Positions 7,634-12,421 of a DNA stretch of 50,030 nt are shown piece by piece; the stretch's first letter is position 1; each line of letters begins with the position of its first letter. Source of the DNA: Patescibacteria group bacterium (GTDB lineage: Bacteria; Patescibacteriota; JAUYIX01; JBHPHK01); assembly GCA_042569365.1 (NCBI GenBank), contig JBHPHK010000006.1, forward strand, positions 1-50,030, written 5' to 3'. The translations under genes were made by a program, and so were the position numbers. The notes beneath the pieces are model-generated. The model did not search any database. It had not been told where the DNA came from and worked only from the letters and a program-made list of their open reading frames with translations.

Positions 7634-8113
7634 ATGGAACAAGAACGAACAGTTTTACTTATGAAGCCTGACGGCGTGCGCCGCGGTTTGATCGGCAATG
7701 TCTTGACGCGCCTTGAAAACAAGGGCTTGAAAGTCATTGGCCTTAAGATGATGACGGTCGAAGATGCTTTAGTACAGGAGCACTATGGTCATCATGCTGA
7801 TAAGCCATTTTTCAAAACACTAAAGGCTTATATCCAGAGCGCACCGATCGTGGCGGTATGTATTGAAGGCATTGAAGCCGTGAAAGTTGTTCGCGCATTA
7901 GCGGGGGATACCAGTGGTCGCAAAGCTGATATCGGTACTATTCGCGGAGATCTTTGTATGAGCGTTCAGACAAATATCGTGCACTCTTCCGGAAATCCTG
8001 AAGAGGCCGAGGTAGAGATTAAGCGATTTTTTAAAGATGACGAGCTCTTCGACTACAGCAAAGGTAACGAAAACTTGATTTACGCAGAGGACGAGAAGGA
8101 TTATCGGGATTAA
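7634..8113 (+). CDS. ndk: Nucleoside diphosphate kinase
   Basis: ERTVLLMKPDGV, GTIRGD, catalytic His in NIVHSS. Confidence 0.95.
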   Translation: MEQERTVLLMKPDGVRRGLIGNVLTRLENKGLKVIGLKMMTVEDALVQEHYGHHADKPFFKTLKAYIQSAPIVAVCIEGIEAVKVVRALAGDTSGRKADIGTIRGDLCMSVQTNIVHSSGNPEEAEVEIKRFFKDDELFDYSKGNENLIYAEDEKDYRD

Positions 8114-8191: not shown

Positions 8192-8662
8192 TTATTCCGG
8201 TGGTGCCTTTGTGTCGTTGAGCATTTCCCGGATTTCGGTCCACGTGCAGGGGCTGAACATGTTGATCGCGTCCTTCACAGTGTCGGAATCGTTCCCGAAA
8301 ATTGTTAGTGATTTGTTGATTTCCAGCGCAGAACTTGGCCAGTGCAATTTAGCGCGCCAAAGATCAGAGCCAGCTACCATAGTTATATCCGGCGTCAGGT
8401 AAACTATTCCGTCAAAAGCGCCGTAGCTCTCAAAGGTCAGGTGGCCGGAAGGTTTTCGCGTAATGATATCGACATATTCTCTTGAATGATTACGCGACAC
8501 TGAAGGTTCTGCCACAATGGTCCCGAGGTATTCTGGAAACTGGATGGCAGTAGCCGTGCTGGTATCGTCAGCTTCTTTGCTGCTGCAAGCCAAGCTTAGG
8601 CACAGCGCAACGGCAACGATCACAATGATCACAAAGAAGGGAGCATGCTTTCTTATGTTCAT
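8192..8662 (-). CDS. Orphan putative lipoprotein (cassette A)
   Basis: AGGAGG SD upstream of the ATG; signal peptide ending in an LSLAC lipobox-like motif; paralogous to 8828-9343. Confidence 0.8.
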   Translation of the reverse strand: MNIRKHAPFFVIIVIVAVALCLSLACSSKEADDTSTATAIQFPEYLGTIVAEPSVSRNHSREYVDIITRKPSGHLTFESYGAFDGIVYLTPDITMVAGSDLWRAKLHWPSSALEINKSLTIFGNDSDTVKDAINMFSPCTWTEIREMLNDTKAPPE

Positions 8663-8827: not shown

Positions 8828-9343
8828 TCACGGTGACGCGCCATCGAGCAGTCTTCGCACTTCGTCCCAGGGCAGGCAGAGCAGCTCGTTTACTTTTTCA
8901 TTAACGCTTGTGCGACTGGCGCCGATGATAGTAAGGTCTGTGTTGGCGTGCCGTTCAACGTTCGTATACCACTGAAGACGTGCGCGCCAGATCGGAGAAC
9001 CAATTGCAAATTCAGCATTCGACGCAACACAAAGAGTTGACAGATTCGAGATGGGGTAGCTCTCGATTTCCACTTTCCCTGTTGATGTTTGAAAGCAAAG
9101 CAAGAGCTCATTTTCACTTTCGGCTACCGGCGCTGCCAGAAGGGTTCCTGCATATTCCGTGAAGACAAGTATTGTTGCGTTCGGCGGAGATGATGGTTGC
9201 AGTATTGCAACTTCCCCAGCTTCGGTGAGGGGCGCTGCTTCGACTGGATGTGCTGTAAGAATGTCCACTCCTGGGAAAATCAAGCAAATCACCAATACCA
9301 AGAAAATGAAACATCCAATTATGAATTTTGGATTTTTAAACAC
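8828..9343 (-). CDS. Orphan N-terminally anchored or secreted protein (cassette B)
   Basis: AAGGAGGT SD before the GTG; hydrophobic N-terminus; shares EYxGT, ESY, GSxxWRAxLxW, LTIxG and WxExRxxL with cassette A. Confidence 0.8.
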   Translation of the reverse strand: MFKNPKFIIGCFIFLVLVICLIFPGVDILTAHPVEAAPLTEAGEVAILQPSSPPNATILVFTEYAGTLLAAPVAESENELLLCFQTSTGKVEIESYPISNLSTLCVASNAEFAIGSPIWRARLQWYTNVERHANTDLTIIGASRTSVNEKVNELLCLPWDEVRRLLDGASP

Positions 9344-9777: not shown

Positions 9778-9814
9778 ACAAGAAAATCCCCGCTATGGTA
9801 AGGTAGCGGGGATT
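9778..9814 (-). terminator. Terminator of cassette D (contains the ORF stop codon)
   Basis: AATCCCCGCTA-CCTTACCA-TAGCGGGGATT then TTCTTGTTTT (minus strand). Confidence 0.75.
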
Positions 9815-10383
9815 GGGGTTTCGAAATTGGTCTGTTGTGCGGCGGGTGTCTGCGGCGCATCTTCGTAGAAAAGTTCCGCGTGGCCTTGGCGGACGAACTC
9901 ATAGAACTTCTGGTCGGCGTCGGTGCAGGCGAGCTCTTCCATTTTCGCAAGGGCGATTTTGCGCAGGCGATGTTCAGTAGTGGCACTGAAGATGCGGTAG
10001 GCTTCTTCGGTAGTGGTCACTTGATCCAGTGCTTTCGAAAAGGCGCGCCAGTGGATGTCCGTCATATCGCCGGGGGAATGGCGCAGAGCGCTCGTGGTAA
10101 TGACAGAGAGACATTCTTCGAAGGTCTCTGCCTTTTCCAGCAGCTGCATTTCCACTTCGAACTGGGACTTTTTCGACCAGTCGACACTGTCGAGGTACGT
10201 AGCGTGAGCGTAGAGGAATTCGGCGTGGCATGCGGTTTCTTCGATTTGGCTTTGTCTTAACTTCCCGTCTCTCAATGTGGTGTAAGTAAGAGTCACAAAA
10301 AAGATTAAGAAGATGATCAGCAAAAAAGCCACAGCGGGCCAGCAAATGCCTTTCGACTTTGACGAGTGCGGTGTATCTGGCAT
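9793..10383 (-). CDS. Orphan single-TM helical protein (cassette D); start revised to ATG 10383
   Basis: AAAGGAGGT SD precedes MPDTPH; TM segment VAFLLIIFLIFFVTLTY. Confidence 0.75.
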   Translation of the reverse strand: MPDTPHSSKSKGICWPAVAFLLIIFLIFFVTLTYTTLRDGKLRQSQIEETACHAEFLYAHATYLDSVDWSKKSQFEVEMQLLEKAETFEECLSVITTSALRHSPGDMTDIHWRAFSKALDQVTTTEEAYRIFSATTEHRLRKIALAKMEELACTDADQKFYEFVRQGHAELFYEDAPQTPAAQQTNFETPIPATLP

Positions 10384-10458
10384 AACCAACCTCCTTTCGC
10401 GCAATTTGCGCAACGTGGTTATTGTTTCGTTTTCGTTGTTTTTAAGGAACAACACATT

Positions 10459-10487
10459 AACCTAACATATCCCGTGCTGTTTGTCAA
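10459..10487 (-). promoter_or_regulatory. sigma70 promoter of cassette D
   Basis: TTGACA-17 bp-TAGGTT with a TGn extension (minus strand). Confidence 0.65.
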
Positions 10488-10566
10488 CGTGTTTAGAGTT
10501 AATCTAGCAGCACGCTTAACAAGCGTTTCAGCGGTTTTAATTGACGCAAAAAGTAGGGTTTTTCCT

Positions 10567-10596
10567 TTGACAAAACATCAAAAAATAACCTATAAT
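10567..10596 (+). promoter_or_regulatory. Consensus sigma70 promoter driving the ncRNA
   Basis: TTGACA-18 bp-TATAAT with no credible ORF downstream. Confidence 0.8.
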
Positions 10597-10600
10597 TAAA

Positions 10601-10757
10601 AAGGCTTCGGACGTATATGGTAGTAGAAACGGAACTTGCCGATCAATGTCCAATATTGGGAGCTCAATATCTTTAGTGCCCGTGGGCACTAAGTGCGAAC
10701 ACCCATAATGCCTAGAATCTGGACAAAGTTCCACTGCCCTAAACGCCCCGAGGCCTT
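10601..10757 (+). ncRNA. Rod-shaped ncRNA, probably 6S RNA (SsrS-like)
   Basis: Nested pairings AAGGCTTCGG/CCGAGGCCTT, GGTAGT/ACTGCC, GGAACTT/AAGTTCC, TGTCCA/TGGACA, TGGG/CCCA, and apical TTAGTGCC-CGTG-GGCACTAA; starts just after a consensus promoter. Confidence 0.65.
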
Positions 10758-10804
10758 AAGGTATCTAACTTTTTCAAGAACAGATATCTATTATTTAGAC
10801 AAAC

Positions 10805-10839
10805 AAAAAACGCCATCTTTCGTAGAGAGGCGCTTTTTT
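10805..10839. terminator. Bidirectional terminator between the ncRNA and rpmB
   Basis: AAAAAA-CGCC..TCT..AGA..GGCG-CTTTTTT. Confidence 0.6.
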
Positions 10840-10855
10840 ATAATATCTAGGATAT

Positions 10856-11062
10856 TTAGAGTTTCGCGGCGAGACTCTGTTTGAAAGAGTCTTTATTGTT
10901 AATAGACTTGATGCACTTGGTGCAAGCACGAATACGTTGGTCGCCAACATTAATCCACTGCACGTTTGCGTGCTGTTTCTTCTTAGTTGCGATGTTGGAG
11001 TGGCTTCGCAAGTTCTTCATATTGTATGTGCGTTCGCAAACGCTACAGTTACTTAAGGACAT
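10856..11062 (-). CDS. rpmB: 50S ribosomal protein L28 (Zn-ribbon type)
   Basis: CSVC...RSHSNIATKKKQHANVQ...CTKCIKS; TTGACA-17-TATTCT promoter near 11112-11140 on the minus strand. Confidence 0.88.
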   Translation of the reverse strand: MSLSNCSVCERTYNMKNLRSHSNIATKKKQHANVQWINVGDQRIRACTKCIKSINNKDSFKQSLAAKL

Positions 11063-11166
11063 AATATTTTTATCAAATGTGTGATAAGATGCTAATTAGC
11101 ATGTACACTTGAGAATATCGAACATCTTTGTTATTGTCAAGTCTCTTAATCTAAATTATCAAAATC

Positions 11167-11799
11167 GTGCTTGTATCTCTTCTTTTCAGCGATCCCTTAA
11201 CTTTTTTTGCCTATCTTATGGCTCTCGTCGTGGGAATAACATTCCACGAATTTGCACATGCTTGGTCGGCGCGCATGTTAGGTGACCCCACAGCAGAACA
11301 GGCTGGCCGTCTGACCCTAAACCCTTTCAAACACCTAGATCTAGTGGGTACGCTCTTCTTGCTCTTCGCCGGTTTTGGCTGGGGTAAGCCCGTCCCGGTC
11401 AATCATCTAAACTTACGCAACGGGAAATGGGGCCGCCTCATGGTCTCCCTCTCAGGGCCCATCTCAAACCTGATTTTAATCTTCGTTTTTGGTATTGCCC
11501 TGCGCTTAGTCTTTGCCTTCACGGCACTGCCGCAGACCAACGGCCTGATTATTTTCTTGCTGGCACTGATTATCATCAATATCATCCTGATGATTTTCAA
11601 TCTGATCCCGGTTCCGCCACTCGATGGGGGAGAGCTGCTTGAGTTTTTCTTGCCGGAGCGCGCGCACCGCATCAAAGAGTTTATCCAGCGGTATGGTTTC
11701 TTCATTCTCTTCTTCTTGCTGATTATCGGATATCGCGTACTTCAGCCTATCTTTGAGAGCGTAATCAACTTCACATTGCGGTACTTAGTGGGGGCGTAG
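11167..11799 (+). CDS. Site-2 protease (peptidase M50 family)
   Basis: HEFAH zinc motif, [23 protein letters not shown]. Confidence 0.93.
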
Positions 11800-11914: not shown

Positions 11915-12421
11915 ATGCCCACAATAAACCAATTAATCAAAAAGCCACGCAAAACAAAGTCGAAGAAATCAAAATCTCCGGCTATGCAGCGTAACTATAA
12001 TGCGATCAAGAATCGCTCTGTAGACCTTAAAAAAGGTAGTCCTTTTAAACGAGGAGTTTGCGTGAAAGTGGGTACGATGACACCTAAAAAGCCGAACTCA
12101 GCACTTCGCAAGTTTGCCCGTGTTCGTCTTACGAACCGTATGGAAGTAACCGCTTATATCCCTGGCGAGGGCCATAATTTGCAGGAACACTCCGTGGTAT
12201 TGCTGCGTGGTGGTCGTGTGAAGGATTTGCCGGGTGTGCGTTATCACGTTGTCCGCGGACACCTTGATACAGGTGGCGTTGAAGGACGCCAGCGCGGTCG
12301 CAGTAAATATGGCACAAAACAGGGTGGTAAAGTTGGTGTTGCAGCAGTAGCTGGAGCAGAAGATGCTGGAGATGCAGGAGACACTGGAGATGCAGGTGGA
12401 GACGCACCAGCAGCAGAATAA
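11915..12421 (+). CDS. rpsL: 30S ribosomal protein S12 with acidic C-terminal tail
   Basis: [35 protein letters not shown]. Confidence 0.98.
12362..12397 (+). repeat. Four degenerate 9-nt repeats encoding DAG/DTG in the rpsL tail
   Basis: GATGCTGGA GATGCAGGA GACACTGGA GATGCAGGT. Confidence 0.8.

Follow-up and report, generated by a model that had tools for sequence, protein, structure and literature searches.

Between the genes ndk and rpmB of a probably patescibacterial genome, in the window analysed here (the whole stretch of 50,030 nucleotides (nt), which is contig 6 of the assembly), lies a segment that has its own promoter and terminator and folds into a long, irregular rod. The evidence presented below leads us to regard positions 10601-10757 of the + strand as very probably the gene for the 6S RNA (SsrS) of this bacterium, in a divergent form. 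The assembly comprises 725 kb in 21 contigs without runs of N and is 87% complete, in keeping with the reduced genome that a preliminary description of this DNA had supposed. Sampled genomes of the phylum span 0.5-2.1 Mb, and the present one is the sole member of its family in the genome sample. The elements that delimit the gene are these:

10567..10596, + strand: sigma-70-type promoter of the candidate RNA gene (TTGACA 10567-10572, 18-nt spacer, TATAAT 10591-10596)
10601..10757, + strand: structured core of the probable 6S RNA gene (157-nt rod), placed by folds, profile homology and synteny
10759..10789, + strand: extra hairpin in the 3' extension, between closing stem and terminator
10805..10839, both strands: bidirectional intrinsic terminator (stem 10811-10832; A6 on the left, U6 on the right)

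The promoter agrees with the TTGACA-18-TATAAT consensus at 12 of 12 positions, just as the preliminary description had read it, and ranks first among the five promoter-like sites of 10300-11200 (shuffle mean 1.9). Its spacing predicts a transcription start at about 10602-10604. The terminator, common to the candidate RNA gene (+) and to the convergent rpmB (−), folds at −12.5 kcal/mol (z −3.6) on the + strand and at −18.3 kcal/mol (z −5.0) on the − strand; it was not among the sites given by the consensus scan of 10300-11200. The transcript probably ends beyond 10757, and since the first terminator is that at 10811-10832, the primary transcript may be about 235 nt long. The hairpin in this 3' extension has an 8-base-pair (bp) stem (AGGUAUCU/AGAUAUCU) with one G-U pair and a 15-nt loop. 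It was not seen in the relatives of the same order, where the terminator follows the rod directly; it may act as a signal for processing or be a relic.

The preliminary description had seen no credible open reading frame (ORF) in the segment, a judgement that holds: none of the three ORFs overlapping the candidate RNA has a Pfam match at E ≤ 0.01.

10537-10734, − strand: overlapping ORF of 65 amino acids (aa), no Pfam match
10693-10884, + strand: overlapping ORF of 63 aa, no Pfam match
10366-10599, + strand: overlapping ORF of 77 aa, no Pfam match

With a promoter and a terminator of its own, no credible ORF and a single copy, the candidate has the make-up of a stand-alone gene. A small protein gene was rejected on the lack of Pfam matches to the overlapping ORFs; a riboswitch or leader, a retron or another reverse-transcriptase-linked RNA was rejected because the terminator precedes any + strand gene and rpmB is convergent.

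Folding of the + strand of 10601-10757 yields −55.5 kcal/mol (z −3.88), a value equalled by one of 200 dinucleotide shuffles; in a second set of 100 dinucleotide shuffles z was −4.17 and none was equally good. The predicted fold is composed of the following elements, all on the + strand:

10601..10610: outer closing stem, 5' strand AAGGCUUCGG, 10 bp with 10748-10757, one of them U-G
10748..10757: outer closing stem, 3' strand CCGAGGCCUU, pairing with 10601-10610
10612-14/10743-45: nested helix
10616-17/10740-41: nested helix
10619-24/10733-38: nested helix
10631-10637/10726-10732: inner closing helix GGAACUU/AAGUUCC
10638..10646: 5' central bulge GCCGAUCAA, 9 nt unpaired, no 3' counterpart
10647-10652/10720-10725: bubble-bridging helix UGUCCA/UGGACA
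10658..10704: apical domain (GGGAGCUC, AAUAU, hairpin, UGCGAACACCC), delimited by the covariance-model match
10673..10692: terminal hairpin, perfect 8-bp stem 10673-80/10685-92 with CGUG loop
10705..10719: 3' strand of the central region AUAAUGCCUAGAAUC, at the position of the CCUGG...CCAGG hairpin of the phylum

The paired transcript ends reported earlier are those of the outer closing stem, and the nested helices, internal loops and perfect 8-bp apical stem reported with them all recur in this fold. Closing stem, central bulge and apical stem with its terminal loop together give the rod shape of a 6S RNA. The − strand of the same interval folds nearly as well (z −3.04), and the strand was therefore assigned by the promoter, by four G-U pairs of the + fold that would become A-C on the opposite strand, and by profile matches found on the + strand only.

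The identity of the rod was approached through the compact 6S RNAs of its own phylum. The Rfam 6S model RF00013 matches 10 of 61 relatives at E ≤ 0.01, three of them over the cut-off, and 20 of 151 phylum genomes at E ≤ 0.001, seven over the cut-off, with a best score of 73.2 bits. The RNAs so detected are 142-197 nt long, mostly about 150-160, which is the candidate's size; labelled contigs that carry phylum 6S RNAs belong to Candidatus Peribacteria and Berkelbacteria, labels that point to Patescibacteria (the candidate phyla radiation) as the probable phylum. Twenty-one phylum RNAs (the 20 from the 151-genome scan and L208, with the partial L207 and the candidate left out) were aligned with MAFFT to give alignment A1. 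A covariance model, R1, was built from the RNAs of A1 with a hand-set structure of 42 pairs, again excluding the candidate, and 40 family members were then realigned to R1 as alignment A4.

Both kinds of profile point to the same place. With nhmmer, A1 gave a single match in the genome, at 10654-10705 of contig 6 on the + strand (E 7.3e-4; next, E 3.4), and A4 matched the same interval and strand at E 1.3e-5 (next in the whole genome, E 6.2). The single genome match of R1 at E ≤ 10 is 10658-10704, + strand, with 33.3 bits, E 6.8e-5 and model positions 55-101; with filters off and in the window only, the candidate has E 4.7e-6 and the runner-up, at E 0.062, is a terminator hairpin. R1 is specific, giving exactly one match per positive genome in 20 of 40 genomes and only four matches at E ≤ 1e-3 in 160 loci with a related M50 peptidase gene and its flanks (843 kb), of which three lie directly downstream of the M50 gene on its strand and one (L135) upstream on the opposite strand. 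In A4 the structure itself is well kept: paired cells make up 84.5% (58.5% in shuffles), both partners have changed in 39 of the 42 pairs, and covariation scores 0.663, a value that is 0.176 at most with slid partners. These figures carry the caveat that A4 was fitted to the model. Homology to accepted 6S RNAs is thus found by profiles built without the candidate, and these profiles find only this locus in the genome, which supports the divergent 6S RNA first proposed; the new class of non-coding RNA offered beside it is unneeded. Some of the 6S genes in the phylum are within reach of the Rfam model as it stands, and the candidate is most likely a new, divergent member of a known RNA family.

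Further likeness appears when the candidate is set beside the Rfam 6S consensus. The consensus line reads 'CuGAgCCgAaaauuuuuauaauaGGGagccc ... gggcaCCCACC', and the candidate has CUUGCCGAUCAAUGUCCAAUAUUGGGAGCUC ... GAACACCCA at equal spacing. The TTGGGAGC motif, which the preliminary description had likened to Firmicutes-type 6S RNAs, is indeed part of this line (GGGagccc ... gggcaCCCACC). Outside the part aligned by the profiles, 'GAgCCgAaaauuuuuauaauaGGGagccc' of the consensus is matched by the bulge GCCGAUCAA and by the spacing between this bulge and GGG; within the bulge, GCCGA matches 'GAgCCgA'. The hallmarks shared with the consensus are GCCGA, GGGAGC, the CGUG-capped hairpin and CACCCA. 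At the position of the terminal hairpin, CCGTGG occurs in six of the 21 rows of A1 (L209, L214, L216, L205, L206, L212) and in the left-out partial L207.

As described in PMC8414754 and PMC12005410, 6S RNA competes with promoters for the RNA polymerase holoenzyme, and its 5' bulge is copied into a short product RNA (pRNA). Conserved pRNA features, according to PMC8414754, are GG at positions 4/5 or 5/6 and an adenine beside the start. As judged by sequence compatibility, the candidate's 5' bulge could serve as such a template: a start at C10644 is predicted to give 5'-GAUCGGCAAGUUCC, with GG at 5/6 and A10645 adjacent, and a start at U10643 to give 5'-AUCGGC..., with GG at 4/5. AUCGGC, the first six bases of the predicted pRNA, are also the first six of the E. 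coli pRNA given in PMC12005410. Phylum members with UUUUGACCCAAC in the bulge would encode the pRNA GUUGGGUCAAAA, which differs at 1 of 12 positions from the B. subtilis 6S-1 pRNA given in the same paper, a likeness that supports the phylum family as true 6S RNA.

The position of the gene adds a further line of evidence. Its conserved surroundings are:

7634..8113, + strand: ndk, context
10856..11062, − strand: rpmB, ribosomal protein L28 of 68 aa (PF00830, E 5.2e-6), convergent with the RNA gene
11167..11799, + strand: peptidase M50 family gene (PF02163, E 5e-17)

A gap of 99 nt separates the candidate RNA from rpmB, and the M50 gene is 410 nt away. Across the 36 distinct 6S places of the phylum (39 loci, three duplicates), the M50 gene is the commonest neighbour, found within 1.5 kb at 28 and mostly directly upstream on the same strand; rpmB is near 11 of the 36 and ndk near four. 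The succession ndk, rpmB (−), M50 (+) holds in all eight order- and class-level relatives, with rpsL after M50 in five. The ndk/rpmB/M50 neighbourhood thus places the candidate in an orthologous position, in a gene order that differs from most of the phylum.

In G001-G006, the six relatives of the same order, a rod of 165-195 nt occupies the ndk-rpmB interval, and ndk lies directly upstream of it. Each of these rods combines an apical stem and an extra hairpin with a 5' bulge of the GCC..(A/U)CA(A) type, the helix UGUCUC/GAGACA and the motifs GGG(A/G).. and ACCCA, and has a terminator; the fold z-scores are −4.6, −1.2, −1.9, −2.6, −2.9 and −4.8. The bridging helix, UGUCCA/UGGACA here and UGUCUC/GAGACA in the relatives, differs at two positions with both sides changed. 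The helix outside the bulge is likewise kept in the folds with unrelated sequence, GGAACUU/AAGUUCC here and GCAUGAA/UUCGUGC in G005. The check for covariation among homologues near rpmB, proposed earlier, gave synteny and compensatory changes in one helix; the relatives' alignment by MAFFT was poor. As a separate observation, inverted repeats ACGTGAA...TTCAC(G) stand 60-130 nt upstream of the 6S-like RNA in L241, L243, L244, L242 and L247, which suggests an operator for a regulator; where the relatives have these repeats, the candidate has a plain consensus promoter.

Several results weigh against identification as a 6S RNA. The first group concerns the standard models: the window as a whole contains no match to any Rfam family at the gathering score, 10400-10900 has no 6S model match at E ≤ 10 and four chance-level matches to other families, and RF00013 has no match in the whole 725-kb genome, so that the check proposed earlier, Infernal against the Rfam 6S models, came back negative at gathering and at E ≤ 10. 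The RF00013 gathering threshold that the candidate fails to reach is a database criterion, not a biological one, and in a control it was exceeded in only four of 14 well-known genomes. The profile matches are local, covering 47-52 of the 157 nt in the apical domain, and for this reason the closing stem, which has no sequence likeness to the phylum family, contributes nothing to the model score; the E-values of R1 are rough, as the tool itself states. At two of the six columns that are invariant in A1, moreover, the candidate has other bases (CCCAUAA vs CCCACCU).

The second group concerns structure. The CCUGG...CCAGG 3' hairpin, near-universal in the phylum, is missing, and the invariant CAC.T columns are unmatched; in place of the hairpin opposite the bulge stands AUAAUGCCUAGAAUC, in which at best a 4-bp CUAG/CUGG hairpin is possible. 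Such a hairpin opposite the 5' bulge is present in B. subtilis 6S-1 and in lactic acid bacteria and is not universal among 6S RNAs. The minimum-energy fold lacks an open bubble, a helix of 6-8 bp bridging the central region; pairing in the manner of the family, with GGG/CCC and GCUC/GAAC, entails one C-A mismatch and a fold 1.5 kcal/mol above the minimum.

The third group concerns the relatives. Two of the six order-level rods fold weakly (z −1.2 and −1.9). The order-level rods were found by place and motif, the best R1 value being E 0.088 (G005, filters off, eight loci), and no counterpart was seen in two class-level relatives. MAFFT with RNAalifold performed poorly, recovering almost no consensus structure from the six counterparts with or without the candidate, and because of this poor alignment the covariation across the closing stem rests on single-sequence folds. 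BLASTN of 10560-10850 against 40 relatives gave short chance matches only, and a search of metagenome and genome contigs with the M50 protein found a nearest relative of 52% identity and no close relatives for covariation.

If the gene is a 6S RNA gene, a mechanism can be proposed by analogy. The RNA would be transcribed on the + strand from its own promoter and end at or before the terminator shared with rpmB, and the rod would take the place of promoter DNA in binding RNA polymerase with the primary sigma factor. A gene for the primary sigma factor is present in the genome (TIGR02393, over cut-off). The double-stranded flanks of a promoter would have their counterparts in the closing stem (10601-10637 with 10726-10757) and the apical domain (10658-10704), and the open bubble would have its own in 10638-10657 with 10705-10725. 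Upon a nutrient upshift, polymerase would copy the 5' bulge from U10643 or C10644 toward the 5' end, yielding a short pRNA, predicted to be 5'-(G)AUCGGCAAGUUCC, which would unzip 10631-10637/10726-10732 and so free the polymerase.

The bridged bubble admits a variation on this scheme that we put forward tentatively and consider unlikely, namely that 6S RNA has been remodelled in this order, with the hairpin opposite the bulge lost and a covarying helix joining the bubble strands so that the resting state is the 'released' conformation. Here the bridging helix is likened to the collapse helix of B. subtilis 6S-1, which arises only once pRNA has been made. Were the remodelled form real, RNA polymerase would have to open the RNA, or the RNA would have taken a different partner.

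The best surviving alternative to a 6S RNA proper, which we nevertheless judge improbable, is a 6S descendant that has given up mimicry of the open promoter and serves another partner, or acts as a different type of regulator, in a reduced genome. Conservation of the bridging helix with compensatory changes across the order would fit such a change of function, as would the loss of the phylum's near-invariant 3' hairpin and the insertion, in order-level relatives, of an extra hairpin beside ACCCA. Retention of the GCCGA bulge, of its spacing to GGGAGC and of a pRNA-like template with the conserved GG argues the other way. Moreover, according to PMC12005410, B. subtilis 6S-1 forms a central bulge collapse helix across the bulge, and pairing across the bubble is therefore compatible with 6S function; minimum-energy folds of the free RNA, in addition, do not depict the polymerase-bound state.

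We give less weight still to a novel class of structured small RNA, unrelated to 6S RNA and sharing a short motif with it by chance. That no Rfam family matches, and that only about a third of the RNA aligns to 6S-derived models, are the facts in its favour; it has to contend with two kinds of profile that give a unique genome-wide match, with a size and gene neighbourhood that are those of the phylum's RF00013-positive RNAs, and with a 5' bulge motif and spacing shared outside the aligned part. Hardly credible is a non-gene, be it a chance palindrome or something that the rpmB region yields as a structured tail or in antisense: the + strand has a perfect consensus promoter and strand-specific profile matches, a terminator lies between the segment and rpmB, and six of six order-level relatives have counterparts at the same place, all against the near-equal folding of the minus strand (z −3.0). 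Least credible of all is a divergent signal recognition particle (SRP) RNA, the other housekeeping RNA that is rod-like and of similar size, for although RF00169 and RF01854 find no SRP RNA elsewhere in the genome, the candidate has no match to either model, no GNRA-capped helix-8-like motif was seen by eye, the 6S model gives as much as 73 bits to related RNAs of the phylum, and with no Ffh M domain or SRP54-type GTPase found in the genome or in 39 relatives, the partner protein for an SRP RNA was not found either. A tmRNA and an RNase P RNA were rejected as well, neither having a model match at the candidate; the tmRNA gene lies elsewhere, at 14975-15384 of contig C10.

The search for SRP components gave a result of its own. 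In a scan of the candidate genome and 39 relatives, 35 of the 40 being at least 90% complete, no trace of the pathway appeared: RF00169, RF01854 and PF02978 (the Ffh M domain) were each found in 0 of 40 genomes, and so was PF00448 (the SRP54 GTPase) at E ≤ 1e-5. In 14 control genomes PF02978 and PF00448 were found in all 14, RF00169 in 12 and RF01854 in seven (three over cut-off). Ffh and FtsY were found neither in the candidate assembly, which gave weak P-loop matches only, nor in the 39 relatives, and the DTAGR motif occurs in none of the six frames of the candidate genome. Either the group does without SRP, or very divergent forms escape the first-look filter. The bacterial type A RNase P RNA (RF00010) likewise had no match at E ≤ 1 in the 87%-complete assembly.

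Some neighbouring genes have features worth recording. L28, at 68 aa, is short and divergent, scoring 26.8 bits on PF00830 against a curated cut-off of 27. Ribosomal protein S12 (11915-12421 of the window) has 168 aa, of which residues 1-136 match relatives; a Gly/Ala/Asp-rich C-terminal tail of about 30 residues lies beyond the aligned part. Between ndk and the 6S gene are three lineage-specific genes on the − strand, at 8192-8662, 8828-9343 and 9793-10455. The products of the first two are paralogous, with N-terminal hydrophobic segments and 28% identity (E 8e-13), and that of the third has no Pfam match.

6S RNA regulates transcription on a global scale, and annotation based on Rfam misses its gene in this genome. 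The phylum-specific model gave a match in 20 of 40 genomes, and RF00013 in 20 of 151 sampled phylum genomes. A full-text literature search returned no paper linking 6S RNA with Patescibacteria, the candidate phyla radiation or Saccharibacteria, and placement of the gene closes a gap in the annotation of organisms for which very few regulators are known. The ndk/rpmB/M50 neighbourhood offers a practical guide to the gene in other members of the group, the pRNA prediction is testable, and a bridged bubble without the 3' hairpin could inform how much promoter mimicry is needed.

Among known systems, one comparison is with actinobacterial Ms1 RNA, also a structured RNA, reported in PMC11077062 to associate with RNA polymerase; no sequence or family link to the candidate was found, at whose locus only chance Rfam matches occur. 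With 6S RNA proper (RF00013; E. coli SsrS, B. subtilis 6S-1) the candidate shares a strong promoter of its own, gCCgA in the 5' bulge, GGGagc, caCCCA and the conserved GG in the predicted pRNA. It differs in being 157 nt long, against roughly 200 nt in PMC12005410, in going unscored by RF00013, and in having a helix that bridges the bubble and no hairpin opposite the bulge.

Another comparison is with the compact 6S RNAs of the phylum. These lie mostly downstream of M50 and on its strand, whereas the candidate lies beyond rpmB and is convergent with it; their CCCACCUGG...CCAGG hairpin opposite the bulge is absent from the candidate, and their closing stems often end in a U run, whereas the candidate's separate terminator is some 50-80 nt further on. 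Common to both are size, GGGAGC, AUAU, a CCGUGG-type hairpin, UGCG.CACCC, one copy per genome and the rpmB/M50/ndk neighbourhood. The rods of the order-level relatives G001-G006 have an identity to the candidate too low for BLASTN or MAFFT and differ from it in length (165-195 nt), in an extra hairpin ACGCC...GGCGU just before ACCCA and in a terminator directly after the rod; with the candidate they share place, orientation, a 5' bulge of the GCC..(A/U)CA(A) type, the bubble-bridging UGUC../..GACA helix, GGG ... ACCCA and a long, irregular closing stem.

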